The position numbers were made by a program, and so were the translations under genes. Below are positions 3,380 through 63,757 of a stretch of DNA of 64,000 bases, piece after piece (positions within the stretch are counted from its first letter, which is position 1; every line of letters starts with the position of its first letter). Location of the stretch: the NCBI GenBank assembly GCA_943788985.1, contig CALSSJ010000030.1, forward strand, positions 1 to 64,000, read 5' to 3'. The notes under the pieces were generated by a model. The model was not told where the DNA came from. It saw only the letters and a list, made by a program, of their open reading frames with translations, and made no database searches. This DNA comes from an uncultured Lentisphaerales bacterium. Lineage in GTDB: Bacteria > Verrucomicrobiota > Lentisphaeria > JABSQK01 > UBA12247.

Positions 3380-3900
3380 TGATGAATCCCCACTGTCAGA
3401 AATTTGAGAAACTTGTCGACCTGGAGGCCGCAGGCTGGCTCTTGCCCGAAGAAGACGCGCTCCTCGCGGATCACCTGCAGTCCTGCGCCAGCTGTCGCCA
3501 ACAAGCTGACGCAGCAGACCAGATCGCGCAGCTGCTGGCAAACTCCGCTGTGACTGCCGCTCCCGTGATTGATCTCGCAGCCTTTCCCGCACCGGCCAAG
3601 CACAACCTGTGGAAATGGCTCCTAGTCTCCGCCGCCGCGGCCTGCCTGGTCCTCGCTTTGCGAATTCCGCAAGCCGTGTCTACGTCTGCCCCCGTCGGGC
3701 TGCCTGTCACCGTGGTGTCGACGGCGCTCCAGCAGGAGAAACTGGCTGCGCTCTCCGCAGCGTTGCCCAGTCTCGCGACCTATCGCCAGGCCGCTTCACT
3801 TTCTGACCACGATCTAGATCGTCTACTCGCAGCCCATAACCGATGCATCGACCTCTATGCGCCACCAACAACCATGCTGACTCACCGAATCACTCGATAA
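3376..3900 (+). CDS. Zinc-finger (HxxxCxxC) anti-sigma factor, single transmembrane helix
   Basis: DHLQSCASCR motif followed by hydrophobic WKWLLVSAAAACLVLAL; overlaps sigma factor stop (GTGA). Confidence 0.8.
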   Translation: MMMNPHCQKFEKLVDLEAAGWLLPEEDALLADHLQSCASCRQQADAADQIAQLLANSAVTAAPVIDLAAFPAPAKHNLWKWLLVSAAAACLVLALRIPQAVSTSAPVGLPVTVVSTALQQEKLAALSAALPSLATYRQAASLSDHDLDRLLAAHNRCIDLYAPPTTMLTHRITR

Positions 3901-3911
3901 GGACTTCCGCT

Positions 3912-5533
3912 ATGAAACCATCCCGCCTCTCCTTCCCACTTGCCCTACTCATTTTACTCCTGGCAATCAGCGCCGCCTTCGCAGTGGACACCCAAGTCAC
4001 CATCAAATGCCGTATTCTGGGCGTGAGCAGTGGCAGCCCGACGTCGATTAGCGCTCCGAGAGTCGTCGTGTTGGCGGGCCAGCAGGCGACCATCGCAGTC
4101 AGACAGGAGCATGTGCTGGCACTCGCAGACTCCGAACTATCCGATCACACACAGACTCTGACCGACGGCCTCCTTCTCGAGGTCTGCCCCGTCGTGGTCG
4201 GTGGCCGGGTGCTACTCAAGGGGACCGTCACCTTTACCCCGAGCATAGCGCCCGCGTCTTTCCACAAAACTGAGCTGGAAGCCTCGGCCACGCTGCATCG
4301 GCAAGAGACTGCCTTCGTGCTGTCGATGATTCCTGGTGAGTCTAAAACACTCCCCATGGGCGAGCACACGACTGTCATCTTGCGGGCCACTCTGGCGTCC
4401 ATTGCCAATGCCGCCACCATATACTGGCAGGCCTTTGCCTCGCTACCGCCAGCGCCCGAAGGCGGAGACTCCGACGCCTTGACTGCCTGGCTCGCGAAGT
4501 CCGACACCGCCCTGTCTCAGCTGCACACCGCCGCCGCCTTGCCGCATTGCGACTGGGAACTCGACTACGATCTCGGATTAAACCTGACCTTGCCGCACCT
4601 CAGCAAGATGCACAGCCTTATCAAGGCGGCTGTCGCCCGTGCAGAAGCCAACATGGCCGACCATCCTGAACGCGCGCATGCCGACCTCCAAGCCCGCGAT
4701 GCGCGCTGCTGGCCATCTCGGCGTCGACCCATTGCTCATTGTCCAACTGGTGCGCATTGCCATAGAACGTCAAGCTGGCGAAAGTGCTGGCGCAACACCC
4801 TGGCCGGCATGCCGGCGGCTTCTCTGAAAGTCATGGCAAGGGCTGCTGGCAGCGCAACCTAACCCGCCCTCCCTGACAAGGGGTGTTGGAGGCAGAGAGC
4901 CACGCCAGCCTGGGCCACCTGCGTAGCCTGCTCGCTGAAGCCGACGCGGATGCCGCCGAGACAGTGCGAAAGGCGACAGGCTTGGATATCGCTGCCGGCC
5001 CGGATCTGGAGAGAATGCTCGATGTAGCCGAAGCCGACTATCGCGAATTGGTCCGTCTTGCCAAGCTGCCGTCATCCGAAAGGATGCCCGCCTTGACCAC
5101 TTTCGAGCAGCAACTTCAGACCACATCAAAGGACCACGCCTTATCGAAACAGCTGATTCCTGCCATCGTAAAAGCTGCCGGGAAAAACTGTCTAGGGCCC
5201 GTTGCGGACTCCGCAGCTCTGCAAAAGAAGCTCGACGCATTGCACCGCCAACGCACTGCTATGATAGAGAAGTTGGACGCCATCATCATCCCCCGCCTTT
5301 CCCCTCAAAGACGCGGAGCTTGCCGACGTCATCAAGTTCCTTTCGCGGGCGCGCCAAAGAAACTCGACCCCGCGCAGAAAGGCGTGAACATTATTTGGCA
5401 GCAGGCGAATACTATTCCAGCCACGGTCAACATCGAGCTGGAGAATATCCCGCTTAGCGAAGCGATCCGCTACATCGCCCAGATAGCAGGCGTCTCGTTT
5501 GCCTTGGAAACACACGCCGTCGTTCTGCGCTAA
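3912..5533 (+). CDS. Exported hypothetical protein with secretin-like N-terminal segment and C-terminal STN-like domain; frameshifted
   Basis: Signal peptide MKPSRLSFPLALLILLLAISAAFA; APRVVVLAGQQATIAV; helical NAATIYWQA...CDWELDY...LPHL; C-terminal IELENIPLSEAIRYIAQIAGVSF; joined from ORFs 3843-4862, 4639-4827 and 4883-5533. Confidence 0.55.
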
Positions 5534-5569
5534 GCCATTCATTCTGAGGCCGAAGGCCGCTAGCTGTCC

Positions 5570-5746
5570 TGCGCCGACCACGTAGCGGTAGCCAGCTTTC
5601 AAGAGTTGATCAACTTCCTGCAACGCATCTTTGCAACTGCAACCAGAGCGAAACCCATGGCTCCAGTCGGCAAACGTGACTTCGAACACTGGTTCAAAAA
5701 CCAGCTTGAACGCGGCCTGAGCGATACGGTCGCGGACGCAAGGAGC
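5570..5746 (-). pseudogene. Group II intron reverse transcriptase/maturase fragment
   Basis: APCVRDRIAQAAFKLVFEPVFEVTFADWSHGFRSGCSCKDALQEVDQLLKAGYRYVVGA matches the RT2-RT3 pattern IPxVRDRxxQ...EPxFE...SYGFRPxRS...YVVDAD. Confidence 0.85.
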
Positions 5747-8305: not shown

Positions 8306-8324
8306 GTGAACGGGTCCGTGAGAG

Positions 8325-19404: not shown

Positions 19405-20194
19405 CCCCCAATCGCTACCGGCTGCCGTAGAGTTCCGTGATGTGACGGTCGTGCGCGGTGGCGTGCACATCCTGGATGGAGTTACCGCAACTGTGCCACG
19501 CGGCGGCTGCACAGCGATTGTCGGCCCGAACGGTGCCGGGAAGTCGACCTTGCTGCTTACACTGCTGGGAGAACTGCCATATTCCGGCCGCATTCACCTC
19601 GATGTTGCGGAAGGCCGTCCACGGGTAGGCTATGTGCCACAGCGCCTGGAGTTCGACCGTGGCCTGCCGATGACCGTCGAGGAATTTATGAGCATGGGAT
19701 CGCAGCGGATCCCCCTCTGGTTCGGCTGCCGCAAGAAGAGCCGCGATCGCGCCCAGCAATTACTGGCCAGCGTGCGCGCGGACGGGCTGGCCCAGCGGCA
19801 ACTCGGGGCCCTTTCGGGTGGCGAAGTCCAACGCGTGCTGTTGGCGCTCGCCCTGCAACAGGACCCAGAGCTGCTCATTTTGGACGAACCAGCAGCCGGA
19901 GTCGATTTTCAAGGCGAGTTACTGTTCTGCGAATTGCTCGAGGGGCTTCGTCGCAACCGTGGCTTTACGCAGCTCATGGTTAGTCATGACCTTTCGACTG
20001 TCACGCACCACGCCAGCCACGTCATCTGCTTGAACCGCTGCGTCGCTGCCGAGGGCTCCCCGCAGGACGTGCTGACTCCGCAAAACTTGGCGGCCGTCTT
20101 CGGCGTACATATGGGTCTAGTGGACCGCAGTTCGATGCCAGACCAAGCTGCCTCCTGCTCAGCCACCTGCTGCGACCACGATCAAGATCACTGA
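19394..20194 (+). CDS. znuC: Zn/Mn ABC transporter ATP-binding protein
   Basis: GPNGAGKST, GYVPQ, LSGGEVQRV, LILDEP, VSHDL; Cys/His tail CSATCCDHDQDH. Confidence 0.88.
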   Translation: MNPDPQSLPAAVEFRDVTVVRGGVHILDGVTATVPRGGCTAIVGPNGAGKSTLLLTLLGELPYSGRIHLDVAEGRPRVGYVPQRLEFDRGLPMTVEEFMSMGSQRIPLWFGCRKKSRDRAQQLLASVRADGLAQRQLGALSGGEVQRVLLALALQQDPELLILDEPAAGVDFQGELLFCELLEGLRRNRGFTQLMVSHDLSTVTHHASHVICLNRCVAAEGSPQDVLTPQNLAAVFGVHMGLVDRSSMPDQAASCSATCCDHDQDH

Positions 20195-20197
20195 CCG

Positions 20198-36060: not shown

Positions 36061-37176
36061 ATGGCTGACGGCGCGCTATCGCGGAAGGCTTACTTGTCGC
36101 GAAACGAAGGAAATTATGATGCCACGATCGAACTTTTCGGACAGAAGTTCGAAAAAGTAGATGACCTGCGTTATGGCACAAACCCACATCAAACTGCAGC
36201 GTTCTACCGGCCCTTGGATATGGCCACGCCAGTAGGCAGCCTCAAGATTCTCAAGACTGGTAAGAGCGGTCTGTCGCAGACCAATCTTGAGGATATCTCG
36301 TACGCGCTGAATATCTGTAAGTACTTTGACCGGCCGGCCTGCGCCTGCATGAAGCATGTGAACCCAAGCGGTGCCGCTGTGCAGGCAAGCCGCGAGCCCG
36401 TAAAGGCCGTGTATCTCAAAGCGCATAGTGCGGACCCGAGAGCGGCATTTGGCTGCGTGGCTGGCTTCAACTGCCAGGTCGATGCGGAAACCGCAGAGGC
36501 GATCATGTCCACGTTTGTCGAGTGTGTCGTAGCACCTGAAGTCACAGACGACGCCCTGGCAGTGTTCGCGGACTATGATCGTTTCAAGCGGAACAAGCAC
36601 ATTCGGATCGTCCAGTGCGGCAACTTGGCTGAGCTGCCGAAGTATGTCGGCGATGCAGGTGCCCCGACATTGAAGGTGCTGCATGATGGATCCTTGGTGA
36701 TCGCCGACCCGTTGCTGACGAATCTACGCAGCGTGGCCGATCTGGGCCCTGCGACGGCAAGTAGCAAGGCACTGGGCGAGGTCACGTCTACGGTTCAGCC
36801 AACCTCGCAACAACTGGATGATCTGCTCACGGCCTGGTACATCAACCTGAACGTGCGATCAAACGGCGTAGTGATCGTCAAGAATGGCGGCGCTCTGGCG
36901 GTTGGTACTGGCGAGCAGGACCGCGTTGGCGCGGTCGAACAGGCGATCTGGAAAGTAAAGGAGAAGTACGAGGGCTTGGATACGATCGCAGGATCGGTAA
37001 TGGCCAGCGACGGCTTCTTTCCATTCTATGATGCGGTAGAAATCGCAGCCGATGCGGGAGTGTCAGCTTTTCTGTCGCCCGTAGGGTCAATCAAGGACGC
37101 CGAGGTGATCAAGCGAGCAAATGAACTGGGCGTGGCCATCTGCCACGCACCTGAGCGCATTTTCTCGCATCACTGA
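36061..37176 (+). CDS. purH: AICAR transformylase (PurH C-terminal domain only)
   Basis: LRYGTNPHQTAAFY, MKHVNPSG, AAFGC, VRSNGVV, GEQDRV, MASDGFFPF; no N-terminal MGS-like IMP cyclohydrolase domain. Confidence 0.85.
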   Translation: MADGALSRKAYLSRNEGNYDATIELFGQKFEKVDDLRYGTNPHQTAAFYRPLDMATPVGSLKILKTGKSGLSQTNLEDISYALNICKYFDRPACACMKHVNPSGAAVQASREPVKAVYLKAHSADPRAAFGCVAGFNCQVDAETAEAIMSTFVECVVAPEVTDDALAVFADYDRFKRNKHIRIVQCGNLAELPKYVGDAGAPTLKVLHDGSLVIADPLLTNLRSVADLGPATASSKALGEVTSTVQPTSQQLDDLLTAWYINLNVRSNGVVIVKNGGALAVGTGEQDRVGAVEQAIWKVKEKYEGLDTIAGSVMASDGFFPFYDAVEIAADAGVSAFLSPVGSIKDAEVIKRANELGVAICHAPERIFSHH

Positions 37177-39152: not shown

Positions 39153-40160
39153 TTACTCGGCGGGCTGGGCAATCTCACCTTTGTTGGCCAGACGGTCGAG
39201 AAGAATGACCCCTACGAAACCAGCTACGATGAGAAACACTGCCAACGCGACCGAAGCATTGAAAGAGTCCGGCATCAGCAGGCCTTCGCGAAGAATCTTC
39301 TCCTTGCCCCGCACGACTCGGCTCTCAAGAACTTCGCGCCAAGGCCAGACCTTCTGTAGTGATCCGATCAGCACGCCTGTCAGGAAGCACATCGTGAGGC
39401 TGTAGTAGTGATTCATGATGTGGTTAAGAACCTTAGAGAAGCCAAGTAGCCCGACCAGCGCACCGCAGCCAAAGACGAACATGATTTGAATGTCGTTGTC
39501 GGCAAACGGGGTCTTATGGATTCCTTTGAGGGCGCCGGTGATAAACGCATACTTGCCAAGGATCAAAAGCAGGAAGGAGCCAGAGATTCCTGGAAGGATC
39601 ATGGCTGTGATTGCGATCACGCCACAGAGGAAAATGAACCAATAGGCTTCTGGTGTCTCAACGGGAATGAGATTCACGACGATGTGTGCGAATACCGCAC
39701 CGCCAAGAATCGTGGCTAGGTTTTTCGCGTTCCACAGCTTCTCAATGTGCCCGCCGATCACGATGATGGAGCCAGCGATCAGGCCTAGAAACAACGACCA
39801 GGTATGAATGGCATGCTCATGAAGAAGGTAGTGCACCAGCTTGGCCATCGAGATAACTGAGGTGCCTACGCCTGCGCCGAGGATGATGAGAAAACGAACA
39901 TGTACGACTGAGATTGCTCTAGCGATGCGGAAGCCAAGCAGATGCTGCACTGCTTCTTTACCGATGGAACTGATGGCTGCAAGCAGGTTGGCGTAAATGC
40001 CGGTGATGAATGCGATCGTGCCGCCGGAGACCCCTGGGATCAGGTCGGCTGCGCCCATGACCATCCCTTTCAGGAATAGGCTGATGCTTTCGCCAGGGGT
40101 GCGTGGCCCTGGCGAGTTGAAGACGGCATCCTTGATGGAGAGGTGCTCAGAGTCAGGCAT
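39153..40160 (-). CDS. DUF368 membrane protein
   Basis: MGAADLIPGVSGGTIAFITGIY, AMILPGISGSFLLLILGKY, GSLQKVWPW. Confidence 0.9.
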   Translation of the reverse strand: MPDSEHLSIKDAVFNSPGPRTPGESISLFLKGMVMGAADLIPGVSGGTIAFITGIYANLLAAISSIGKEAVQHLLGFRIARAISVVHVRFLIILGAGVGTSVISMAKLVHYLLHEHAIHTWSLFLGLIAGSIIVIGGHIEKLWNAKNLATILGGAVFAHIVVNLIPVETPEAYWFIFLCGVIAITAMILPGISGSFLLLILGKYAFITGALKGIHKTPFADNDIQIMFVFGCGALVGLLGFSKVLNHIMNHYYSLTMCFLTGVLIGSLQKVWPWREVLESRVVRGKEKILREGLLMPDSFNASVALAVFLIVAGFVGVILLDRLANKGEIAQPAE

Positions 40161-44835: not shown

Positions 44836-46026
44836 TTATAGTATGTGTCCGAGCCGTTCCCGCTTGGTCTTGAGATAGAAGGCGCTAGGCGGCTTGGCTG
44901 GCGCAACGATCGGCAGGCGCTTAACGACTTCAATGCCGTAGTCCGTAATTCCCTGAACTTTCGCGGGATTATTGGTCATGAGATTCACCGCTGAGATCCC
45001 CAAAATCTGCAGGACTTGGGCCGCCACGGAATAATCTCGCATGTCGGGCGGGAATCCGAGGCGCTCATTGGCCTCCACGGTATCCAGTCCCTCGTCTTGC
45101 AGGCGGTAAGCCTGAATTTTCTGAACCAAGCCGATTCCTCTTCCTTCCTGCCGCAGGTAGACGAGTACGCCAGAACCGTTGCGGATGATCTCTCGCATTG
45201 CAATATCCAGTTGGTCGCCACAGTCGCAGCGGGAGGAATGGAGAATATCCCCGGTGAAGCATTCGCTGTGGATTCGCACCAAGGCTGGCTGGTTTTCGTC
45301 GATGTCGCCGAACGTAACCGCGATGTGTTCGCGGGAGTCGTATAATGTCGTGAAGCAATGCAGTTGAAAATCCTGATCCGAGTAGCTGGTCGGTAGATTC
45401 ACAGATCCACTTGGCTGGATGACTCGTTCGCGCTGTTGGCGGTAGCGCACTAGGTCGGAGACGTTGATGTGGGCGAGCCCATGAGTCTCGACAAACTTGG
45501 CCAGGTCCGGAGCGCGGGCCATTTCTCCGTTTTCTGCCAGGATCTCGCAGATGGCCGCGGCCGGCTCGCAGCCAGCCAAGGTCACAAGATCGAGCGCTGC
45601 TTCTGTATGCCCTGGTCGTTCGAGGACACCTCCTTCTTTTGCCAGCAGCGGGAAAATATGGCCCGGAATATCAAAGTCGCCTCTGCTTGCCTGCGCTTCG
45701 GCCAACTTGACCAAGGTCTGTGAGCGGTCCGCGGCTGAAATCCCGGTCGTGACACCTTCCCTGGCATCGACACTGACGGTAAATGCGGTCCCAAACCGGT
45801 CCACGGTTGTGGACATGGGCCAGAGGCCCAACTGCTCCACGCGTCCACGGGACAGCGGTGCGCAGATCAGGCCGCGCCCATGCACGGCCATAAAATTCAC
45901 GACTTCTGGAGTTGCGAACTCCGCAGCGACAATAAGGTCTCCCTCGTTCTCGCGCCTTGCATCATCACTGACGACGATAATTTCGCCTTTAGCGATCGCC
46001 TCGATTGCCTGTTGTACTGTGCTCAT
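44836..46026 (-). CDS. ribBA: Bifunctional DHBP synthase / GTP cyclohydrolase II
   Basis: DDARRENEGD, FTVSVD, GVTTGISA, RPGHTEA, RIHSECFTGD, RCDCG, QEGRGIG, MTNNP. Confidence 0.95.
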   Translation of the reverse strand: MSTVQQAIEAIAKGEIIVVSDDARRENEGDLIVAAEFATPEVVNFMAVHGRGLICAPLSRGRVEQLGLWPMSTTVDRFGTAFTVSVDAREGVTTGISAADRSQTLVKLAEAQASRGDFDIPGHIFPLLAKEGGVLERPGHTEAALDLVTLAGCEPAAAICEILAENGEMARAPDLAKFVETHGLAHINVSDLVRYRQQRERVIQPSGSVNLPTSYSDQDFQLHCFTTLYDSREHIAVTFGDIDENQPALVRIHSECFTGDILHSSRCDCGDQLDIAMREIIRNGSGVLVYLRQEGRGIGLVQKIQAYRLQDEGLDTVEANERLGFPPDMRDYSVAAQVLQILGISAVNLMTNNPAKVQGITDYGIEVVKRLPIVAPAKPPSAFYLKTKRERLGHIL

Positions 46027-46102
46027 GCTTATTCCGTCAACTCGTTGCATTCGTGGCACAGCAACACGGGCCGCATGCCTGTGTGCATGCGCCTGTCAGC
46101 GT

Positions 46103-46353: not shown

Positions 46354-48594
46354 ATGCTAGAAGAGAACGTCCCACCCTCCGGCGATGAACAAGCACCCCA
46401 GCACTGGGTCTGTGCGTTGGTTCTGCTGTTTCTAGTCATTCTTGCCTACCGGCCGGCGCTGAGCTGCGATTTCATCTGGGATGACGATCAGTACGTGTAT
46501 GAGAATCCGGTGCTGACCAGCGACACAGGACTGCGTGACATCTGGCTGGATCCGCTAGCCACCCCGCAATACTACCCAATGGTTCATACCAGCTACTGGC
46601 TGGAACACAAACTTTGGGGCATGCGGCCGCTCGGATATCACAGTACAAACCTGCTGCTGCACGGCGCCGCTGCCATATTACTCTACCTACTGCTACTCCA
46701 GTTGAAGGTCCCGGGCGCGTGGTGGGCTGCGGCGTTATTTGCGATTCACCCAGTGAATGTCGAGTCCGTGGCGTGGATTACCGAGCGGAAGAATGTGTTG
46801 GCCGGTCTATTCGCCTTTGCTGCGTTGAATTTCGGTTGGTGGGCGACGGAAAGCCAGTCGAGGTGGCAATCCAGTTTCTGGAAATGGCTGTGCGCACTGC
46901 TCTTCTTTGTCCTTGCGCTGCTGTCCAAGACTGTCGCTTGTTCCATGCCCGCGGTACTGCTGCTACTGCTATGGTGGCGGCGGCGATTGCGCCCGGGAAC
47001 TGTGGCTCCTCTGATCCCGTTTTTCGCGTCCGGCCTGTTATTCGCGCTCCTGACCGTGCGGTTGGAACGGCATTTCGTGGGGGCGGACGGGCCCGAGTGG
47101 GATCTATCTTTGATCGATCGCTGCTTGATCGCCGGCCGCGCTTTGTGGTTCTACATCAGCAAGATTGCATGGCCTGAGCCACTCATGTTCATTTATCCGC
47201 GCTGGGAAATAAATAGCGCAGTGTGGTGGCAGTACCTGTTTCCGCTCGCGGCGCTGTTCGTTCTAATCGTGGGCGCCGCGCAGGCCTTGCGTGGCAAGCG
47301 TGGCCTGTTTGCCTGTAGTGCGATGTTCGCAGGAGTGCTGGTTCCGGCGCTGGGATTCTTTAATGTTTACCCGATGCTGTTCTCCTTCGTGGCCGATCAC
47401 TTTCAGTATCTCGCCACGCCCGTTGCCTGTGCTGGACTCTGCGCCGTAGTCTTTGGCAACGCCTCGCACGGGCGGCTACGACGCGGGGGCATGACTGCCG
47501 TGTTGGCCGTTTTTCTGGTCTTGAGCATATTGCAGTGTCGCATCTATCAGGATGAGGAGACCCTATGGCGAGCCACTGCTGCAGACAACCCAACTGCCTG
47601 GATCGCCCACAATAATCTCGGTCTCATCCAGCTGAATCGAGGCGAGACCACAGAAGCCATTGCCGCCTTTCACACAGCCCTGCGCTATCGTCCACATCAC
47701 AGCACTGCCTGGGGGAATCTTGGGCTGGCCTATTCCCAGCTTGGACAGAAATCATCGGCGGCCAGTGCGTTTCGCAAATCGGTCGAGCTTGAGCCGGAGG
47801 ATGCAGACGCGCTGAACCTGGCAGCAAACTTTTTTGCCGGTGAACGCCGCTATGACGAAGCGCTCCCGCTCTACCTGGCGGCCCTGGCCAGGAAGGACGA
47901 TCCCGGAATCGGGACCAACTGTGCAGCCATGCTGATCGAAGCCGGCCGTTGGCAAGATGCTGCGCCAAGGTTGCAGACTATTGTCCAAAGCTACCCTGAC
48001 TTTCCCGCTGCACGCTATCACCTGGCCTACGTCAGCGAAAAGCTGGAGCACCATGATCAAGCCCTAGTGCAGCTTCGCGCCCTAGCGAGCCTGGACCCGC
48101 GTCCGGAGAACCTAATCTGGCTGATGCGGAGCTTGATACGCGGCGAGCACTATCAGGAAGCAAGTCCGCTTGCCGAAGCTTTGCTAAATCGAGAACCGAG
48201 TCCGCAGGTCTTGGCGCTTGCAGCCCGCGTCGCGGCCGAAAATGGTGCTGCAGACATCGCAATTCAGCGCTGGGAACGGGCGCTGTCTGTGACGTCTCCC
48301 GCTGCCAGTACCTTGCAAGACTATGCGTGGTTTTTGGCGACCCGCCAAAGCAGCACGCGCGACCAGCGCAGCCGCGCACTGGCGAGTGCTCAATTGGCTC
48401 TGAAGCTTGCCAAACCAACCACACCGGCGCTTTTGGATTGCGTCGCCGCAGCTCACGCATCAGTGGCGGACTTCGCAGGTGCCGAGCTTTTTGCTGCGCG
48501 AGCAGTTGCTGCCCTGTCGCCAGTGGATGCCCGCCGTGAGTCGTTTCAGAGTAGGCTAGACTTGTATCGCGCGGGCCAGTCCTTCTATCGATAA
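46354..48594 (+). CDS. Multi-TM GT-C/TMTC-like protein with C-terminal TPR repeats
   Basis: FIWDDDQY, YYPM, GYH--NLLLH, HPVNVESVAWITERKN, VADHFQY, ETLW, then AHNNLG/AWGNLG TPRs. Confidence 0.85.
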   Translation: MLEENVPPSGDEQAPQHWVCALVLLFLVILAYRPALSCDFIWDDDQYVYENPVLTSDTGLRDIWLDPLATPQYYPMVHTSYWLEHKLWGMRPLGYHSTNLLLHGAAAILLYLLLLQLKVPGAWWAAALFAIHPVNVESVAWITERKNVLAGLFAFAALNFGWWATESQSRWQSSFWKWLCALLFFVLALLSKTVACSMPAVLLLLLWWRRRLRPGTVAPLIPFFASGLLFALLTVRLERHFVGADGPEWDLSLIDRCLIAGRALWFYISKIAWPEPLMFIYPRWEINSAVWWQYLFPLAALFVLIVGAAQALRGKRGLFACSAMFAGVLVPALGFFNVYPMLFSFVADHFQYLATPVACAGLCAVVFGNASHGRLRRGGMTAVLAVFLVLSILQCRIYQDEETLWRATAADNPTAWIAHNNLGLIQLNRGETTEAIAAFHTALRYRPHHSTAWGNLGLAYSQLGQKSSAASAFRKSVELEPEDADALNLAANFFAGERRYDEALPLYLAALARKDDPGIGTNCAAMLIEAGRWQDAAPRLQTIVQSYPDFPAARYHLAYVSEKLEHHDQALVQLRALASLDPRPENLIWLMRSLIRGEHYQEASPLAEALLNREPSPQVLALAARVAAENGAADIAIQRWERALSVTSPAASTLQDYAWFLATRQSSTRDQRSRALASAQLALKLAKPTTPALLDCVAAAHASVADFAGAELFAARAVAALSPVDARRESFQSRLDLYRAGQSFYR

Positions 48595-49213: not shown

Positions 49214-49309
49214 GCGCGGCGTTGCGAACTTCACAAACCGCGTCAATGGCACAGGCACCGCGCGGCGTTGCGAACTTCACAAACCGCGTCAATGGCACAG
49301 GCACCGCGC
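49214..49309. repeat. Perfect 46-bp tandem duplication
   Basis: GCGCGGCGTTGCGAACTTCACAAACCGCGTCAATGGCACAGGCACC at 49214-49259 and 49260-49305, plus GCGC. Confidence 0.9.
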
Positions 49310-49692: not shown

Positions 49693-50637
49693 ATGAACAA
49701 GGAACAGCATCAGGACATACGCATTGGCACCCTAGTCAACGGCGGTGCGAACTCCGCAAACTACATCGAACAGATCTTGCCCCACGGCTTTGAATCCTTC
49801 AGCATTACCTTTTGGCAGACCCTTGGCGACACCGACCTGTCGCAGCTCGCTGCCGAGGTGATGCCGGTCGTCACTGGCGGCAACGCCGTGGTCTCCAGCC
49901 TTGGCGTCTTTGGCAACCCGCTCGAAAATGACGAGCTGGCACAGAAAACCCGCGAGGGCTGGGAACTAGCGATCGACCACGCCCACGACTTCGGCTGCGA
50001 CATCGTTGCTGGTTTTGCCGGACGCCTGCGCGGCAAGCCGATTCACGAAAGCATGGATCGCTTTCGCGAGGTCTTTCAACCACTTACCGAGCGCGCGGGC
50101 GAAAAGGACGTCCGCATTGCCTTCGAAAACTGCGATATGGGCGGCACTTGGGAAAGCGGAGACTGGAACATCGCTCACAACCCCACAGCCTGGGAGATGA
50201 TGTTCGATGCTGTCCCCTTGCCCAACATCGGCCTCGAGTGGGAACCCTGTCACCAAATGGTCAGCCTCATGGACCCAATGCCACAGTTGGACGACTGGAT
50301 GTCACGCATTTTTCATGTGCATGGCAAGGACGCCACCGTCCATTGGGACCGAGTCCGCAAGTATGGCATCCACAGTTCCATGCATCAGGATATCGCGCTG
50401 GGCAACAAGAGCTCAGTCATTCAGCCCTTCGCCTACCATCGCACACCCGGCTTTGGCGACAGCGACTGGACCGCGATCATCACCAAACTGCGACAAGGCA
50501 GCTTTGTTGGCTGCATTGATATCGAAGGTTGGCACGACCCTGTCTACCGCGACGAGCTGGAAATGACCGGCCAGGTCCATGCCCTCAATTACTTAAAGAA
50601 CTGCCGAGGCGGCACCTTCGTCGCCAACCCGACCTAA
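49693..50637 (+). CDS. Sugar phosphate isomerase/epimerase (xylose isomerase-like TIM barrel)
   Basis: RIAFENC, GLEWEPCH, FHVHGKDA, PGFGDSDW, IDIEG. Confidence 0.88.
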   Translation: MNKEQHQDIRIGTLVNGGANSANYIEQILPHGFESFSITFWQTLGDTDLSQLAAEVMPVVTGGNAVVSSLGVFGNPLENDELAQKTREGWELAIDHAHDFGCDIVAGFAGRLRGKPIHESMDRFREVFQPLTERAGEKDVRIAFENCDMGGTWESGDWNIAHNPTAWEMMFDAVPLPNIGLEWEPCHQMVSLMDPMPQLDDWMSRIFHVHGKDATVHWDRVRKYGIHSSMHQDIALGNKSSVIQPFAYHRTPGFGDSDWTAIITKLRQGSFVGCIDIEGWHDPVYRDELEMTGQVHALNYLKNCRGGTFVANPT

Positions 50638-54990: not shown

Positions 54991-55023
54991 AATATTGAAT
55001 AATCTCGCAATTATAAATATTCC

Positions 55024-56996: not shown

Positions 56997-57760
56997 TTAT
57001 ACCACCGATGCCCAAAACCAAGCCCGAAAGCCTGACCTCACTCGCTCGAGACCCAGCTGCGTTTGGGCCAGCGAAACCGGGCGGCCAGCGCGGCCCACGG
57101 ATTGAAGCCGAAGCATGAAAGCAGCCCGAGAATTGTCTGGATTTCGCTTGAATAGCTCTCTGGCTACACGCACCGCGTCCTCGTGGCAGTTCATCCTCAC
57201 GTAGTGACCAGCCAGGCTATCGGGCATCTGATCGGATTCCGGTAAGTCCTCCAGCAACCATCTAAGAGAGGCGGCATCCCACTGCAGCCAGGCCGGATCC
57301 GAGGTAACTTCTGAGAAGATTTCTGAAAGCGCCTGCCCTCGACTCTCTTCTGCCTTCAAGATCAGCACGCCGGCGCAATTATCCGTGTTGGTGGTGGCAC
57401 ATTGCAGGTACTGCCCGGCAATCCGCGGCGGTGCTTGGGATAGCGCTCCAGCATGGCCTTGAGCTCAGTGAGTGCTGCTTCCAAGTCCAATGCTTCCTCG
57501 TACAGCAACACGCGCTGAAACCACAGACCTTGGTGCGCTTGAAACTGCGGCACCAAGCGAACCAGCCATTCGTTTGCGGAGTTCGCAACGTTGATCGCCG
57601 CGCCATACTGCGTGAGTTGGTCAGTCACAGCAAAGACAAACCACTGCACCGCGCCACTCTTGGGCCTGCCTCCAGCCATCACGTGAGCGGCCAGCCATAA
57701 ACAGATCCCTGGCTTCTCCCCAGGCAGAGGAGATATCGGGGGTGGAGTTGCGAATCTCAA
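56997..57760 (-). CDS. Hypothetical helical-repeat protein, probably frameshifted or fragmentary
   Basis: Two overlapping ORFs with TPR-like helices (LYEEALDLEAALTELKAMLERYP; EDAVRVARELFKRNPDN). Confidence 0.35.
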
Positions 57761-57830: not shown

Positions 57831-59426
57831 CTACGACAACTTTTTCAGGACTGACTCGTCTCCCTTCAGACGGCGGTAGTTGGCATGCATCGCATCGAAG
57901 CGCTTCAGCTGCTGCGGCAGACGCGTTTCGTAGAAGTCTTGGAAGTCCTTGGCGGCCAGGGGGCTCCAGCCAACCTCAGCGATCGCGCAGCCGCGTGGAT
58001 AGGTCATGTAGAGCATGTGCTCGAAATCTGGCATATACTCAGTCCAGACATTTCCCTGTACGCCCATAATGTGCGTGGCTTCGGCCGGCGTCAGCTCAGC
58101 TGGAACCGGATCATAGCTGTAGACCGTACATAACGGCAGGTGCCCGCCGATTGCAAGCGGCTCGCCCTCGGTCGCCTGGCGGTAGTCTAAATAGCAGTGG
58201 GTCGTCGGGCTCATCACCGCATCGTGCGCCGCTCTAACAGCGGCAATCCCGCCCTTCTCTCCCCGCCAACTCATGACCGCAGCATGCGGCGCGAGACCAC
58301 CTTCGAGAATCTCATCCCAGCCAATCAACGTCTTGCCCTTGCCATTCAAAAATTTCTCAATACGCCGAATCACGTAGCTCTGGAGCTCTTTCTCGTCCTG
58401 CAACTGCTCATCCTGAATCCGTTGCTGACAGTCCGGACAGGCCTTCCAGCGGCTCTTGCGGCATTCATCACCGCCGATATGCAGGTAGCTCCCCGGAAAT
58501 AGCTCACAGACCTCAGCGAGGACGTCCTCCAGAAATGAGAAGGTCGATTCCTTGCCAGCGCAGTAGGCATCCTCACTAATCCCCCATTCCACTCGCACCG
58601 GAATCTTCTCGCCGGTACAGCTCAGCTCGGGATACGCGTGAATGGCAGCCATCGAATGCCCCGGTAGCTCGATCTCGGGAACGATCGTGATGAAACGACG
58701 GCGGGCATACTCCACCACCTCCCGAATCTCTGCCTGGGAATAGCAGAAGGGCCCGTAGGCCTCGCCCTTAAATTTCCGGGGTTCGTCGCGAAAATGCCCG
58801 ACTAGTTCGTCTTGGCGGACCGACGCTTCGGTGGCCAGCTTGGGATATTTCTTGATCTCGATGCGCCAGCCTTGGTCTTCGGTCAGATGCCAGTGAAAGA
58901 CATTCATCTTGTGCAAGGCCAAGAGATCGATGAAGCGCTTGACCTCATCTGCAGACGCAAAATGGCGAGCAACGTCGAGCATCAGCCCACGCCAGGCAAA
59001 ACGCGGTTTATCCTCGATCGACACGCAAGGCACGCTCAGCTCACCCTCGTCTACGAGCAACTCGCCGTAGACTTCCGGTGGCAGCAACTGCAACAGGCTT
59101 TGGACGCCCCAGAACGCACCACGCCCCGTGCTTGCGGAGATCGCAACTTTCTGCTCCGAAATCTGCAGGGCGTACGCTTCCTCCCCAAGCGCAGCATCTG
59201 CGCGGATCACGATCGCATTCTCCGCGCTTTTCTGCCCGGCCGTGCTCTCATTCCCAACCACAACGGCAAACCGCGCGGCCAGAAAGTCCGCGGCCAGAGC
59301 GAAGTCTTTGTCGCCCTGGACCACAATCGAGGTGCTAGGCGTAATCGTAAAAGTTCCTTGCTGCACCGTCATGGTGACAGGCTGAGGGATCACGCTAGGG
59401 CCTGTTGGTCGATTGGGCATGGTCAT
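57831..59426 (-). CDS. Beta-N-acetylhexosaminidase (GH20)
   Basis: DKPRFAWRGLMLDVARHF, FHWHLTEDQGWR, PEIELPGH, HIGGDE, GVQGNVWTE. Confidence 0.95.
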   Translation of the reverse strand: MTMPNRPTGPSVIPQPVTMTVQQGTFTITPSTSIVVQGDKDFALAADFLAARFAVVVGNESTAGQKSAENAIVIRADAALGEEAYALQISEQKVAISASTGRGAFWGVQSLLQLLPPEVYGELLVDEGELSVPCVSIEDKPRFAWRGLMLDVARHFASADEVKRFIDLLALHKMNVFHWHLTEDQGWRIEIKKYPKLATEASVRQDELVGHFRDEPRKFKGEAYGPFCYSQAEIREVVEYARRRFITIVPEIELPGHSMAAIHAYPELSCTGEKIPVRVEWGISEDAYCAGKESTFSFLEDVLAEVCELFPGSYLHIGGDECRKSRWKACPDCQQRIQDEQLQDEKELQSYVIRRIEKFLNGKGKTLIGWDEILEGGLAPHAAVMSWRGEKGGIAAVRAAHDAVMSPTTHCYLDYRQATEGEPLAIGGHLPLCTVYSYDPVPAELTPAEATHIMGVQGNVWTEYMPDFEHMLYMTYPRGCAIAEVGWSPLAAKDFQDFYETRLPQQLKRFDAMHANYRRLKGDESVLKKLS

Positions 59427-59448
59427 GGTTCCTCTTGGGCTTAGTGAT

Positions 59449-61959
59449 TCAACGTTGGCGTCGCGGGTCGGTATCCACGGGCGCCGAGCGCTCGCTCTCG
59501 CCCCGCGAGTTCCAGGCGGTGACCGCGTACTGAAACACGCGCACGTCGCTCATATCGATGGCAGCTGCAGCTTCGAGCCCAGGCTCGGCATAGCTGGCGA
59601 CAATTCCCTTCGCTCGATCCGTAAACTCCGGTGCTTGACAGCGCGCGAGCGCGGTCCACTGCGCCCGCGGATGCTCCCGGCGATACACCACATAGCCAGC
59701 AGCTCCCGCGACCGGTCCCCAAGCCAAGCTGGCCTGACCTTCCTCAAGCGTAAGCTCAAGCCCACCAGGTGCCACGGTTCGGACACGTGCTGCGAGGCCC
59801 TGGCCCTGCGGTGCAACCGGCTTCCCGAATGACCACGAGCTGTCCCCGGTAAGCGTAAAGCCGACGCGTTTTTGCTTGGGATCGTGCTCCGCTGGCTCGC
59901 CATTGATGTGTAACGGCTCGAACAGCTTGGGCAGTTGCGCCCGCACCAGCAGCCGGGTACGCGCCTGGGCCACGCCATGACTACTGCGGGCCGTGAATTC
60001 GAGTTCTAGCTCCTGCGCATCGCGCGGGGCCTGGCCCCGCAGCTCACGCGTCAGCGGCTCGTACGTCAGCCAGTCCGGCAGGCCGGCTACGGTGACCTTG
60101 GGTGCCGGGATCCCGCTCACCGGCACGGTCAGCTGAAATGGAGTGTCCCAGACTACGGTGAGCATCGCTGGCAGGTGAACGGCCGGGCCGCCGGTCTCCA
60201 CGCTCGGAAGCAGTTCGGCCACGGCAACGCTGATGGTCATACCGGCCAAAGCGGCTGCTTGCCCGTGTGCCCGCAGGACTTTCCCCTGTCGGCGCGGCAC
60301 GTTCAGGCGCAACACGCCCTCGCCTGCCGTCTCAAGCGTGAATTGCGAAGTTCGCAACATCCCGGGACTGGTCAGAAGGATCTCAAACTCATCCGGGGTG
60401 CGATGCACCAGGATGCCCGCGGCGCGCCCACGCAGGCCCCAACTCGGCTGGGTCCCGCTGCCAAAGCAGGCCCAGTCATTCTCGAGCGTGATCGCGCGCT
60501 CGCTGAGCGTAGAGGTGGTGCCTACAGCCCCGTCATCGTGAGCCTGGAGGGTGATAGCCGAGGCGCTTCCCAACGTCGCGTGCACTGCGAAACGATTGGC
60601 CAAGATCGCCAGTGTGGACTCGCGTCCGCCTTGCCGAATCCAGCTTAGCTGATTACCGGTTCCGGCCAGAAAGCGAGCGTCGAATGCCACCGCGCCAGGC
60701 ACCAGCGGCCAGCTGGCGCCGTGCACTCGGCCTCCGGCAATGACGGCAAGCGGTGGCTCGGCCGCCGCTTGCCAGATGGCCGCAGCCTGGCCCGCGGTGT
60801 GCAGGATCACGGCGTGGTCCGCGAGGATTGCGGACTCCGCAATCCGCGGCAGCTGCAAAGCCCGTTCCAGGCAGCTGGCCGGAGCGCCGGTCAGCATGTT
60901 GTAGACCCCGGCGAAGGACCGCCCGTACCCGGGCGAGAGTTGCGGAGTTCGCAACGCCGCGGCTTGTTTGACGAGCTGACGCCATTGCGGAGATCGCAAC
61001 GGATCCCCCGGCAACCGGGCCGCAATCCGGACAATCGCCTCGAGTCGCTCGCAGCGCAGGGATTCCAGAACGGCCCAGCGCTTCACCGCCAAATAGGCTT
61101 GGTCAAGATCTTCGCGGGCCACCGTGCTCTCGCGCAGATGCGCCTGCCAGGCCTCCAGTTCTGCCTCGCTGGGAGCGCGCGGGACGCTAGGCGGAGCTGG
61201 ACACGCGCCGCGCTCAAACTCTGGCAGTGCGAATGCGCCCAGCTCACCGATGGCCAGCAGGCCACGGACGCGGCCTGTGCTGAATTCGGGTGCCTCAGGC
61301 ACCCGCGTGAGCGTGGCGGCAGTGGCGATATCGAGCGATCCCGCCGCGCCAGCAGCGGTGTGCTCAAGCTGGAGATACGGGCAGGCATGGTAGCTGCGCA
61401 GGATCAGCTCATGAACCCCGCCATTGGCAAACACGGTGGTCAGTGCGAACTCCGCAAACACGGAACCAGAGACCCGCGTCTCGAAGTCGCGGCGCATTGC
61501 GGTTTGCGAACTCCGCACCGCCAGCCGGGCCGTGAGCGGTCCGCGCTGAATGAGAAGGCTCGGGCTGTCTAAGTCCCAGCTCACGGTGTAGGTCGGCGCG
61601 GACGTCGGATACTTGGGCGACGAATTCGGGAATTGGGCGGTCAGAGCTCGGTGTGCGCAGAGCAGATGGACGCGCGCGAACCAAGAGCCATCGCCATTGC
61701 GTCGAGTGCCCGTGAGCTGAAGCGGAACGGGACTGCCAGCGGGGTCCAGCAGCACTAGGCGCTCGGGCGGTAGATCCCGGGGAAATTGCATGTGCAACGC
61801 GGCGGGGCCAGGCAAATACGGGACCAGCGCCTCGCTGACCTGAGCGGTAGCCCCCGGCTTTGGGTGAAGCAGGTAAGGGTTATCCCGCTGGCTGTGCGCG
61901 ACGGCGACACAGGCAAGCAGCGCGAAACAGAGTGTGCGTTTAGCTACGGTCGCGCCCAT
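59449..61959 (-). CDS. Exported hypothetical protein with C-terminal Ig-like and FN3-like domains
   Basis: Signal-like RTLCFALLACVAVAHS; VAGLPDWLTYEP--RELRG (putative Ig); LAWGPVAGAAGYVVYR...YAVTAWNSRGES (FN3). Confidence 0.6.
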   Translation of the reverse strand: MGATVAKRTLCFALLACVAVAHSQRDNPYLLHPKPGATAQVSEALVPYLPGPAALHMQFPRDLPPERLVLLDPAGSPVPLQLTGTRRNGDGSWFARVHLLCAHRALTAQFPNSSPKYPTSAPTYTVSWDLDSPSLLIQRGPLTARLAVRSSQTAMRRDFETRVSGSVFAEFALTTVFANGGVHELILRSYHACPYLQLEHTAAGAAGSLDIATAATLTRVPEAPEFSTGRVRGLLAIGELGAFALPEFERGACPAPPSVPRAPSEAELEAWQAHLRESTVAREDLDQAYLAVKRWAVLESLRCERLEAIVRIAARLPGDPLRSPQWRQLVKQAAALRTPQLSPGYGRSFAGVYNMLTGAPASCLERALQLPRIAESAILADHAVILHTAGQAAAIWQAAAEPPLAVIAGGRVHGASWPLVPGAVAFDARFLAGTGNQLSWIRQGGRESTLAILANRFAVHATLGSASAITLQAHDDGAVGTTSTLSERAITLENDWACFGSGTQPSWGLRGRAAGILVHRTPDEFEILLTSPGMLRTSQFTLETAGEGVLRLNVPRRQGKVLRAHGQAAALAGMTISVAVAELLPSVETGGPAVHLPAMLTVVWDTPFQLTVPVSGIPAPKVTVAGLPDWLTYEPLTRELRGQAPRDAQELELEFTARSSHGVAQARTRLLVRAQLPKLFEPLHINGEPAEHDPKQKRVGFTLTGDSSWSFGKPVAPQGQGLAARVRTVAPGGLELTLEEGQASLAWGPVAGAAGYVVYRREHPRAQWTALARCQAPEFTDRAKGIVASYAEPGLEAAAAIDMSDVRVFQYAVTAWNSRGESERSAPVDTDPRRQR

Positions 61960-62884
61960 ACCAGGCTGCCGCGGCGCGGAGGCCATCGACAAGTTCCATG
62001 CTAGGCTCGAAACCAAGCAGCTTGCGCGCCTGGCTGATGTCCGCCACGTAGTGGGTTACCTCGCCTACGCGCGCTCGCTCGAACGAGACGTCTGCTTTGA
62101 CACCGAGGACTTCTTCGAAGGTCTCCGCGACCATACGTAGCGGCGAGCCGCTACCGTAAGCTAGGTTGAAGGTCTGATTGCGGACTTCGCCGCTCAACAG
62201 CTTCTGGCAGCCCGCGAAGACGCCCCGCACACAGTCGTCGACGTAGGTAAAATCGAGCACTTTTTCCGGCCCAAAGATGGTAATCGGGCGGCCGGCGGCA
62301 ATCTCGCGATAGAACAGCGGAATCACGCGTTCCATGCGCTCGATATCATCATCGAAACGCCCATAGACGTTGCTGAAGCGAAAGACCAGATAGGGCAGCT
62401 CGTAGCAACGGGCGTAGGAGTAGATGAACGCTTCGCTGGAGATCTTGCTCGCGGAATAGGGGCTCTCAGTGGTGCTGAAGCTGGCGTCTCCTTCGCTGGT
62501 GACGTAGCGCTTGATGTCGCCGTAGACTTCGCGGGTGGAGCTGAAGACCAGCGGGATGGAATTGATGCGACAGTATTCGATGACGTTGAAGGTCATGTTG
62601 AAGTTATCGCGCGCTTTGCTCGGGAATTCGACCAACTCGTGAACCTTGGCATTGGCAGCCAGATGCACGACGAGATCGATGGGCCCATAGTCGACATCGC
62701 CGAGGCCGCCGTTGAAATCAGGAAAGGGGGCGGAGAGGTCTTGCAGCAAGAGGGGAAACTCGTTGCTCCAAGTGTTCGGGCGCTTGTCGATGCCAAACAC
62801 TTCGTAGCCATGTTCGAGGCAGGTGAGCCCGAGATTGGTCCCGATCTGCCCGGCGGCTCCCGTGATGAGAATTCGCTTCGCCAT
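61940..62884 (-). CDS. NAD-dependent epimerase/dehydratase
   Basis: ILITGAAGQIG, VHLAA, FSSTREVYG, SPYSASK, RFSNVYG, DFTYVDD. Confidence 0.93.
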   Translation of the reverse strand: MAKRILITGAAGQIGTNLGLTCLEHGYEVFGIDKRPNTWSNEFPLLLQDLSAPFPDFNGGLGDVDYGPIDLVVHLAANAKVHELVEFPSKARDNFNMTFNVIEYCRINSIPLVFSSTREVYGDIKRYVTSEGDASFSTTESPYSASKISSEAFIYSYARCYELPYLVFRFSNVYGRFDDDIERMERVIPLFYREIAAGRPITIFGPEKVLDFTYVDDCVRGVFAGCQKLLSGEVRNQTFNLAYGSGSPLRMVAETFEEVLGVKADVSFERARVGEVTHYVADISQARKLLGFEPSMELVDGLRAAAAWYGRDRS

Positions 62885-63114
62885 CAGATCACCAGCTCGG
62901 CGCTGCCAATGGTCAGACTCACGGCAAAAGCGGCCAGCATGCCTAGGGCGTTGTACGGGGATTGCGAACTCCGCGCGTAGGCGAAGTACATGCAGAAGGG
63001 GGGAACCAGCAGGGTCAGCAGGCCCTCACCGCGGCTTTCGCGGAACGCCTCAAGGACGTAAAGCACATAGAAGCCACTGGCGACGAGCAGAAACAAAATC
63101 TGAAGGATATGCAT
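62884..63114 (-). CDS. Small membrane protein
   Basis: MHILQILFLLVASGFYVLYVL-AFRES--G--LLVPPF; stop overlaps the epimerase start. Confidence 0.55.
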   Translation of the reverse strand: MHILQILFLLVASGFYVLYVLEAFRESRGEGLLTLLVPPFCMYFAYARSSQSPYNALGMLAAFAVSLTIGSAELVI

Positions 63115-63178
63115 GAGAAGGTTCCGGTTCGCGTTGGGTCGGTACCATAGCTGACAAGCGGTCATAGATCTACGAGGA

Positions 63179-63757
63179 TTACGGCAGGCCGTAATCGGCA
63201 ACCGTCACAAGCGCCTCGGAGCGATATTGGCTTGCCGGCGTCACCGCGCGGCGTTGCCAAGGAATTCGGCCAAAGAACCACAGCTTCCAGAAGGTTTGTG
63301 GGCAGTCAGGATAACGGCTGAGTGTTTGCTCAAAGGTCTCCAATATGCCCACCTCGACACCGGTCGCCTCGAGCAACACGTCATAGACGAGCTTGGAGCA
63401 ATACTGACGCGGGCTGTCGTAGGCAAAGCCGAGGTGATACCAGCCCCCCATCCGGGCCGCGCAGGCGTCCTCGAGCTTCGCTTGCTGCTCGCCAGTGAGA
63501 GCCGTTTCCGGGCGGCGAATGGCGTACATGCCATTCTCTGAGCGGGCGATAAACGCGTCCAGAGCCGAGTATGCGCAGCGTGGCACGCGGCTTTCTGCCA
63601 CGCGCAGGCCCCCGGCCGGATCGCTGACCAAAACCCCGACATGCGAGGTCCACGATTGCGTCGCCTTGGCCACGTGCCGGTAGAGCAGGTTATCAATTCT
63701 GGTGAAGACCACATCACCCGGTCGCAGCGAACTCCGCAAAGTATCCGTGATCATCAT
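63179..63757 (-). CDS. YiiX/YebB-like permuted papain-like (NlpC/P60) enzyme
   Basis: GDVVF, SWTSHVG, YHLGF...QYCSKLV, FWKLWFFGRIPW-R--VTP. Confidence 0.88.
   Translation of the reverse strand: MMITDTLRSSLRPGDVVFTRIDNLLYRHVAKATQSWTSHVGVLVSDPAGGLRVAESRVPRCAYSALDAFIARSENGMYAIRRPETALTGEQQAKLEDACAARMGGWYHLGFAYDSPRQYCSKLVYDVLLEATGVEVGILETFEQTLSRYPDCPQTFWKLWFFGRIPWQRRAVTPASQYRSEALVTVADYGLP

Follow-up and report, generated by a model that had tools for sequence, protein, structure and literature searches.

What keeps a short, quasi-palindromic word recurring through a bacterial genome? The question is raised by a 64,000-nucleotide stretch of DNA from an uncultured Lentisphaerales bacterium (contig CALSSJ010000030.1, positions 1 to 64,000; hereafter the window), which holds 14 exact copies of the 13-mer TGCGRANTYCGCA where 100 dinucleotide shuffles averaged 0.02 and never exceeded 1. 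An earlier note on this DNA had taken the word for the binding site of a dimeric protein that organises or segregates the chromosome. We find that the window is an ordinary stretch of a genome carrying the word nearly everywhere, and that its sites are local samples of a genome-wide, hyper-abundant quasi-palindrome, which in copy number and strength of enrichment is of the type of the highly iterated palindrome HIP1 and of the uptake signal sequence (USS) and is unlike known organiser sites. As the process most likely to sustain it we tentatively favor a bias in transmission, acting through DNA uptake or recombination.

The window is positions 1-64000 of contig C30 in genome G000 (4.58 Mb, 48 contigs, 58% GC, 83.6% complete); throughout, G numbers denote genomes, f numbers families of relatives, C numbers contigs and L numbers excised segments or loci. 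Across G000 the 13-mer occurs 898 times and is spread over 47 of the 48 contigs. As a spacing control, we counted TGCG-N(0-11)-CGCA across the genome and observed 1,749 sites at N5, about 1 per 2.6 kb, compared with 142-205 at each other spacing; for TTGCG-N5-CGCAA the corresponding figures are 594 and 4-14. The core of the word consists of the arms TTGCG and CGCAA with exactly 5 bp between them, and the centre in G000 is RASTY, with a logo of TTGCG-R-A-S-T-Y-CGCAA; 94% of sites have C or G at the middle position, and 65% have the outer T and likewise 65% the outer A. The commonest 15-mer, TTGCGGAGTTCGCAA, has the asymmetric centre GAGTT and occupies 216 sites against 0.014 expected from an order-3 Markov model, while each single change in its arms is found at most 8 times. 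Sub-words of the palindrome head the ranking of over-represented 6- to 9-mers in G000. A literature search for the word in several forms found no report of it, the one match being an unrelated primer; searches for Lentisphaer-group palindromes and for TTGCG/CGCAA palindromes gave nothing relevant among the matches listed, and a term search of Elhai 2015 found no mention of non-cyanobacterial phyla.

The abundance of the word is not a reflection of codon choice. When synonymous codons were shuffled within each gene for 30 rounds, 15.7 ± 3.6 copies remained compared with 728 in the actual sequence, and the N4 and N6 spacing controls matched their own shuffles with no excess, so that the enrichment survives both the codon and the Markov nulls that the earlier note had proposed as a test. 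Genes contain 727 of the 898 copies (81%), against a coding share of 78%. The self-complementary phase T/GCG/RAS/TYC/GCA accounts for 491 of the 727 genic copies (68%) and encodes A-[EDNK]-[FS]-A; the other two phases and intergenic DNA bear the word as well. In the predicted proteins, where composition would give 34.8 copies of AEFA, there are 172 (and 20 of its reversal, AFEA); ANSA has 128 against an expected 29.3 and AESA 173 against 56.1. Of the AEFA occurrences, 116 of 172 are written as the word, as opposed to a share of 0.33% predicted by codon usage. The word has thus reshaped the G000 proteome, overriding protein sequence, and the peptide excess itself consists of word-encoded copies; the earlier note was right that a shared peptide motif does not explain the sites.

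The ribBA gene of the window shows how a site can come about. The word there encodes AAEFAT, and the alignment pairs this with AAExxT in seven other phyla, no gap intervening. The gapless alignment indicates that the word arose at this position by substitution and not by a 15-bp insertion, and an in-frame insertion element of that length is ruled out at this, the single site checked. We conclude that the word is formed in place by substitutions, including ones that change amino acids. Asymmetric forms show no bias between sense and antisense orientation (217 versus 194), on which ground a role as an RNA hairpin was rejected, and none with respect to GC skew (170/204 and 209/204); the lack of both skews makes Chi-like or KOPS-like (FtsK-orienting polar sequence) readings, as well as RNA-level ones, unlikely. 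Sites outside genes or at gene edges number 328, of which 140 lie at most 300 bp upstream of a start; no pattern pointing to an autoregulated reader gene stood out in this list of positions.

Within the window, allowing one mismatch raises the count to 30 sites against 1.04 expected: the 14 exact copies and 14 single-mismatch copies of the earlier note, every one of which we recovered, and two that it had overlooked (36483 and 47319). The looser form TGCG-N5-CGCA has 23 sites against 3.5 expected, three of which (3747, 13750 and 18753) have unrelated centres and are perhaps there by chance. As the note had described, the copies are mostly genic and mixed in frame and strand: 13 of the 14 exact copies lie within called genes on both strands, phases 2 (T/GCG/RAS/TYC/GCA), 1 and 0 holding seven, five and one of them, and the peptides LRIPQ, FAESA, CGVRN, AEFA and ANSA are all encoded at copies. 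Both flanking letters (TTGCG...CGCAA) are present in 8 of the 14, and the extension to a 21-bp palindrome that the note had pointed out is likewise present. The exact copies are the following, with gene strand in brackets.

3659..3671: TGCGAATTCCGCA, flanks T..A, in gene 3376-3900 (+), phase 1, LRIPQ
5203..5215: TGCGGACTCCGCA, in gene 4883-5533 (+), phase 2, ADSA
29901..29913: TGCGAACTTCGCA, in gene 28066-33237 (+), phase 2, ANFA
29943..29955: TGCGGAGTCCGCA, full TTGCG..CGCAA, in gene 28066-33237 (+), phase 2, AESA
35011..35023: TGCGGACTCCGCA, at the start of gene 35010-36017 (+), phase 1
35775..35787: TGCGGAGTCCGCA, full 15-mer, in gene 35010-36017 (+) (DUF4301), phase 0, CGVRN
45913..45925: TGCGAACTCCGCA, in ribBA 44836-46059 (-), phase 2, AEFA
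49746..49758: TGCGAACTCCGCA, in gene 49693-50637 (+), phase 2, ANSA
57575..57587: TGCGGAGTTCGCA, within the commonest 15-mer TTGCGGAGTTCGCAA, outside called genes
60344..60356: TGCGAAGTTCGCA, full 15-mer, in gene 59449-62016 (-), phase 1
60825..60845: exact copy grown to the 21-bp palindrome GGATTGCGGACTCCGCAATCC, in gene 59449-62016 (-), phase 2, AESA
60941..60953: TGCGGAGTTCGCA, commonest 15-mer, in gene 59449-62016 (-), phase 1
61444..61456: TGCGAACTCCGCA, in gene 59449-62016 (-), phase 2, AEFA
61505..61517: TGCGAACTCCGCA, in gene 59449-62016 (-), phase 1

The 16 sites with one mismatch are these.

29832..29844: arms intact, centre GCGTC
36483..36495: arms intact, centre GAAAC (absent from the earlier list)
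39687..39699: arms intact, centre AATAC
47319..47331: arms intact, centre ATGTT (absent from the earlier list)
59133..59145: arms intact, centre GAGAT, a variant tolerated genome-wide (50+50 copies)
60986..60998: arms intact, centre GAGAT
20070..20082: single arm mismatch (TGCT...)
30606..30618: single arm mismatch (...CGGCA)
34867..34879: single mismatch, final letter
35735..35747: single arm mismatch (TGCC...)
48465..48477: single mismatch, initial letter
49223..49235: single arm mismatch (...TCACA)
49269..49281: single arm mismatch (...TCACA)
62179..62191: single mismatch, final letter
62963..62975: single mismatch, final letter
63726..63738: single mismatch, initial letter

The densest gene of the window, 59449-62016 (-), is an 855-residue open reading frame (ORF) with 6 TGCG-N5-CGCA sites and no Pfam family at an E value of 0.001.

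The patchiness that the earlier note had seen is real on a local scale, with no exact copy between 5.2 and 29.9 kb of the window, and it does not extend to a restriction of the word to any region. In 10-kb bins of G000 we observe a mean of 3.85 sites and a variance-to-mean ratio of 2.27. Site density follows local GC (Spearman 0.55) and rises from 0.18 to 0.58 sites/kb across quintiles of GC at third codon positions (GC3), while the supply of A-x-x-A peptides stays flat, near 4.4 per kb. Tandem protein repeats account for some of the clusters. In L171:4969-6281 (G000:C2:109969-111281), for example, sites at 5464, 5665, 5866, 6067 and 6269 are 201-202 bp apart; this array is a tandem 67-residue protein repeat with the word in each unit, and public contigs contain joints and variants of it.

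The site-poor stretches of G000 are flexible-genome DNA, of which three examples are listed here.

G000:C12:1-60000 (L183-L185): one-strand 60-kb cluster of sulfatases, fucosidases, GH20, rhamnosidase and SASA esterases, with a DDE transposase
C35: O-antigen-type glycosyl- and methyltransferases, Y2 transposases, HsdR and AIPR
C9: RecC-like and RecB-like genes and a DUF4011 helicase-nuclease

The first of these, which is nearly word-free, also has seven called genes with an endonuclease/exonuclease/phosphatase domain, two of them short pieces. Conserved genes tend to be poor in sites as well. Among aligned genes, the third with the highest conservation has 0.125 sites/kb against 0.23-0.29 elsewhere, a trend only (Spearman -0.11, p 0.15), and conserved aligned parts have 0.21 sites/kb against 0.40 over all coding sequence. 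The 8 kb at G000:C30:78966-87025 are free of sites and comprise a pair of neighbouring ORFs (4,230 and 3,867 nt); the second is rpoB (PF00562 match at 83402-85036) and the first is presumably rpoC. The absence of sites from the rpoB region agrees with a lower density where proteins are under strong constraint.

The word extends beyond G000, in altered form. The RASTY-centred 15-mer is frequent in only some relatives. In a scan of 401 genomes of the phylum for TTGCG-N5-CGCAA with a free centre, 16 had at least 70 sites (reversed control, 0-9); all 16 belong to one class, and other classes stay at the control level with a maximum of 25. The arms are kept across families ranging from 41% to 58% GC, and the centres form lineage-specific dialects. 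In G196 the 50 sites listed have AAWTT in 25 and AAAAT or ATTTT in 16, in G017 GASTC makes up 34 of the 50 listed, and in the f3 genomes the centres are mostly GGASTCC among the matches listed. The 41% GC genome G025 has its arms extended to TTTGCG/CGCAAA around a near-random centre; 400 kb of it contain 62 sites, and other spacings yield 2-7. This genome is near-complete, and 18 of 20 spaced 20-kb samples contain the word on both skew arms, the two empty samples being the lowest in GC; neither this spread nor the orientation of the asymmetric forms in G000 shows the positional bias relative to GC skew that the earlier note had proposed to look for. Contigs C1 and C2 of G025 (2.81 and 2.65 Mb; L191-L210) each have one sign change of GC skew, near the middle, a pattern that fits two replicons or one chromosome cut at origin and terminus.

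From one family to another, the sites change position. Across 173 aligned gene pairs of G025 and G000 (mean identity 44.5%, the closest pair available), 33 G025 sites and 42 G000 sites map to aligned columns; only 2 are shared, both within conserved L-R-x-x-Q peptides. The named relatives by RpoB are Verrucomicrobiota, including Victivallales, at 56-65% identity, which places the organism in the PVC group, whereas RibBA relatives were uninformative as to lineage. When 29 genomes were placed in a tree by RpoB (FastTree with local support values only, rooted on two rows from another class), the word-bearing genomes are clustered without forming one clade; six label changes are needed, at least four of them forced by well-supported branches, and the rooted tree suggests that the word was gained once, at the root of the class, and lost about five times.

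Mobile DNA and natural populations provide a further view. Scanning viral contigs for the commonest 15-mer gave 60 loci, 59 of which are single copies, as chance predicts, and one genuine carrier. This 28-kb contig (L169/L170; behind L132) carries TGCG-N5-CGCA 14 times, compared with once for the control, the usual centre being GGASTCC, and encodes a terminase, a portal, a head protein, and MuA-like and MuB-like transposition proteins. It is a temperate, Mu-like transposable phage of a related host, with a host-like density of the word. It also has a DNA methyltransferase (phrog_56) and a PAPS-reductase-like gene, and its ORF at L169:15831-16382 contains two pairs of the word 18 bp apart. The window itself is found in 20 public marine or estuary runs from 10 studies. 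Comparison of the contigs (not reads) of four runs with the densest 20 kb of G000 (L171, 22 sites) gave 38 variable places, of which two adjacent ones lie inside the word, at 1 of the 22 sites and in one low-depth contig within the 201-bp tandem repeat; with about 0.5 expected, this comparison has no power.

We searched for a protein that might read the word by checking protein families in 36 genomes of the class (in the ParB_N count, 20 with and 16 without the word). The checks for ParB- and MatP-like proteins that the earlier note had suggested came out negative. ParB_N (PF02195) has no match in G000 and is found in 2 of the 20 word-bearing genomes (G196 and G279) and in 7 of the 16 word-free ones, and MatP (PF06303) is found in 0 of 5 genomes. 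No G000 site matches the parS sequence TGTTTCACGTGAAACA at up to one mismatch, the word shares no half-site with it, and matS-like strings in G000 number 3. ParB_N was not found in 27 of the 36 genomes, including near-complete ones of 2-5 contigs, and the class may be without a canonical ParABS system. Some of the ParB_N matches share a contig with a PF01555 methylase (G196:C72, G027:C36).

Among competence proteins, DprA is found in 36 of the 36 genomes, including G000, PilM in 35 and ComEC in 34, an occurrence that, as far as gene content goes, is compatible with transformation. A second, long ComEC-like paralogue (DUF4131 plus Competence, 930-1244 residues, with no assigned domain in its C-terminal third) occurs alongside the ordinary ComEC in word-bearing genomes only, namely G005, G013, G017, G196, G247 and G270 of the 36 (f3, f8 and part of f15). 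Copies lie at the following positions.

L178:3910-6744 (-): long ComEC-like paralogue
L179:93-2906 (+): long ComEC-like paralogue
L180:5351-8995 (-): long ComEC-like paralogue
L181:2694-5519 (+): long ComEC-like paralogue
L182:411-3203 (+): long ComEC-like paralogue

It was not found in f9, f14, f16, f18 or part of f15, and gave no tblastn match in G000; missing from several word-bearing families, it is not the common factor and was rejected as the reader. ComEC, DprA, PilM and HHH_3 were set aside as phyletic correlates, being present regardless of the word or patternless.

How does the word compare with known systems? HIP1 (GCGATCGC) and the alternate highly iterated palindromes of cyanobacteria are likewise palindromic, hyper-abundant in genes and spacers, and clade-specific with variants, and G000 displays just such a genic and intergenic palindrome beyond codon and Markov expectation. 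Neither HIP1 nor the present word acts as a peptide or RNA motif. HIP1 is an 8-bp block in cyanobacteria, whereas the present word is a 15-bp bipartite (5+5+5) one in another phylum; HIP1 has cognate methylases, and for the present word no cognate methyltransferase was found in the families searched. The function of HIP1 is still debated. A role in nucleoid structure is proposed by Xu et al. 2018 (PMC5861425), a methylation-dependent increase in transformation is reported in bioRxiv 10.1101/2024.09.10.611283, and HIP1 is proposed as an uptake sequence in PMC13756078. HIP1 sites are reported as conserved (PMC5861425), while 2 of 33 sites of the present word are shared between families at 44.5% mean identity.

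With the USS of Pasteurellaceae and the DNA uptake sequence (DUS) of Neisseriaceae, the word has in common a density of about 0.4-1 copy per kb on both strands, and a place in coding DNA in tolerated phases with distortion of the proteome (PMC2817400). All of these have a sharp core from which single-letter departures are few. USS and DUS are also familiar for differing in dialect between lineages and for being scarce in DNA of recent acquisition, and both features are found here too, so that density, proteome distortion, dialects and foreign-DNA scarcity all agree, clustered spacing being the exception. USS and DUS are asymmetric and family-level, whereas the present word is palindromic and old at class level, and their uptake bias is shown by experiment, whereas for the present word such a bias, like a ComP-type receptor, is hypothetical. 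Organiser sites are also similar in form: matS, parS, the Noc-binding site (NBS) and the SlmA-binding site (SBS), read by MatP, ParB, Noc and SlmA, are palindromes of 12-16 bp read by dimers and sometimes intragenic. They occur in tens of copies confined to one chromosomal region, in contrast to the roughly 1,700 copies found everywhere in G000; their sequences are unrelated to the word, and ParB and MatP were not found. Type I restriction-modification targets likewise consist of two half-sites with a fixed spacer, and the spacer in G025 is unspecified. Restriction targets are usually avoided, however, while the present word is enriched and its spacer specified in most lineages, and the type I systems found are ordinary and not shared.

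In the reading that we favor, a two-fold symmetric, dimeric protein would recognize the word on duplex DNA, and word-bearing fragments would be taken up, spared or recombined more often in natural transformation or other homologous exchange. Near-matches would thereby be turned steadily into matches by molecular drive, the process invoked for USS/DUS and lately put forward for HIP1 as well. The word would be kept by a position-independent process acting on all resident DNA and not by any function of individual sites, and the reader protein would be old in the class and lost several times. The arms conserved at one helical turn and the spacer free in one family point to a symmetric reader of duplex DNA; this part of the earlier note's inference, a dimeric DNA-binding protein, stays plausible. 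The excess is large, the word is sharp, it rewrites proteins and it is indifferent to position and strand; its sites turn over under a conserved core, it has dialects, it is scarce in flexible DNA and it is present in a temperate phage. Taken together, these features place the word in the class of USS/DUS and HIP1 and not with parS, matS, NBS or SBS.

Several observations weigh against this reading. The word is a bipartite palindrome, whereas USS and DUS are asymmetric; only the centre of the commonest form (GAGTT) departs from symmetry. The families searched yielded no candidate for the reader, and there is no experimental or literature record of competence in this lineage. ComEC, DprA and PilM are equally present in word-free relatives and thus do not track the word, and ComEC has no match in G000, an assembly 83.6% complete. 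A HIP1-like dependence on methylation would lead one to expect a conserved methyltransferase, and none tracks the word: none of 5 f3 genomes has the C5 methylase family PF00145, nor does G028, PF01555 was not found in G000, G025, G028, G311 or G308, PF02086 is in 1 of 5 genomes, and PF02384, although present, sits in ordinary type I operons (M-S-R: modification, specificity, restriction) with full-length S subunits, its G000 copies being in broken frames. Gaps between sites of less than 400 bp and of more than 12.8 kb are in excess, such that spacing is clustered rather than even. The 24-kb site-free stretch of the window (5.2-29.9 kb) has ordinary GC3, and residence time and GC3 therefore leave part of the patchiness unexplained. 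The gene models behind these counts are 3,000 rough, home-made calls covering 78% of G000. The HsdM-like PF02384 matches at G000:C36:36244-38483 (L172:6244-8483) fall in six stretches in different frames, with one internal TGA, and the locus looks like a decayed type I system or the product of assembly errors.

Among the alternatives, the one that we regard as possible, if doubtful, is that the word is the genome-wide site of a nucleoid-associated dimer, whose roughly 1,700 sites would compact or shape the chromosome with density rather than positions under selection, a softened version of the earlier note's idea. Arm centres 10 bp apart are typical of dimeric binders, the arms persist across families of differing GC content, and another organiser is conceivable in a class most of which seems to be without ParB and parS; HIP1, too, has been argued to act in nucleoid structure (PMC5861425). 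Yet positions are not conserved (2/33), and the centre shifts between families with thousands of sites following, which is hard to square with each site being functional. Word-free relatives lack ParB too, which leaves no link to the loss of ParABS, and no candidate protein was found. The enrichment and rewriting of proteins also go far beyond what is seen for Chi, KOPS, matS or NBS. We consider it improbable that the word is a self-DNA mark, Chi-like or anti-defence, by which a host nuclease or defence system spares or processes word-bearing DNA and the chromosome, prophages and plasmids are driven to carry it. The host-like density in the Mu-like phage contig, the scarcity of sites in islands likely of recent arrival and the RecC-like and RecB-like genes on C9 would suit such a mark, and a Chi-like contribution has been suggested for HIP1 (bioRxiv 10.1101/2024.09.10.611283). 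The sole phage example, however, is temperate and transposable and shares the fate of the chromosome, and 59 of the 60 viral loci are single. Chi-type sites, moreover, are short, asymmetric and skewed to one replichore strand, and the word is palindromic and unskewed.

Rather less probable still is a strictly HIP1-like target of an orphan DNA methyltransferase, its abundance kept through methyl-directed repair or discrimination. The palindromic form suits such an enzyme, the bipartite word with its free spacer in G025 resembles type I specificities, and two methylases recognize HIP1 (PMC4390886 and PMC13756078). Against this, a family-level search, in which several genomes were incomplete, found no methyltransferase common to all word-bearing genomes among PF00145, PF01555, PF02086 and PF02384; the latter three were rejected as the reader, none of them tracking the word. 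A repair drive of the Dcm/Vsr type was likewise rejected on the C5 methylase result and on Vsr, which is absent from G000, f3 and f8. The 13-15 specified letters are far above what is usual for such an enzyme, and the only adenines of the arms, at their outer ends and 12-14 bp apart, are unlike those of type I targets. The regional centromere, macrodomain or nucleoid-occlusion site that the earlier note had favored, an analogue of parS, matS, NBS or SBS, would account for a palindrome of similar length whose copies look clustered in the window, but we judge it very improbable. The note itself had held that a uniform genome-wide distribution would speak against such a role, and that distribution, over nearly every contig of G000 and evenly along G025, refutes it, with the want of ParB, MatP and parS on the same side. 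The idea that codon usage, amino-acid composition or a common peptide motif produces the word as a side effect, for which the prevalence of one phase could be cited, has next to no probability and is refuted by the spacing control and the synonymous shuffle.

Hyper-abundant "identity words" have been studied in only two or three bacterial groups, and their mechanism is disputed. The class provides a natural experiment, with the same arms at 41-58% GC, family-specific centres and about five seemingly independent losses, that suits a search for the reader by phyletic and co-variation analysis and could tell an uptake tag, a nucleoid site and a self-mark apart. The word could be used as a marker for assigning hosts to the class's phage and plasmid contigs, one Mu-like phage having been found in this way, and could be built into DNA constructs should these bacteria be transformed. 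The wider proposal, which we put forward as a possibility less likely than the transmission bias itself, is a class-wide system of self-DNA recognition in Lentisphaeria-like bacteria of the PVC (Planctomycetes-Verrucomicrobia-Chlamydiae) group, in which a bipartite 15-bp tag and a putative dimeric receptor would bias uptake or recombination. If true, this would extend uptake-sequence-like systems beyond Proteobacteria and cyanobacteria for the first time and would be the oldest such system known, dating to the base of the class, lost about five times, and with dialects acting as barriers between families.

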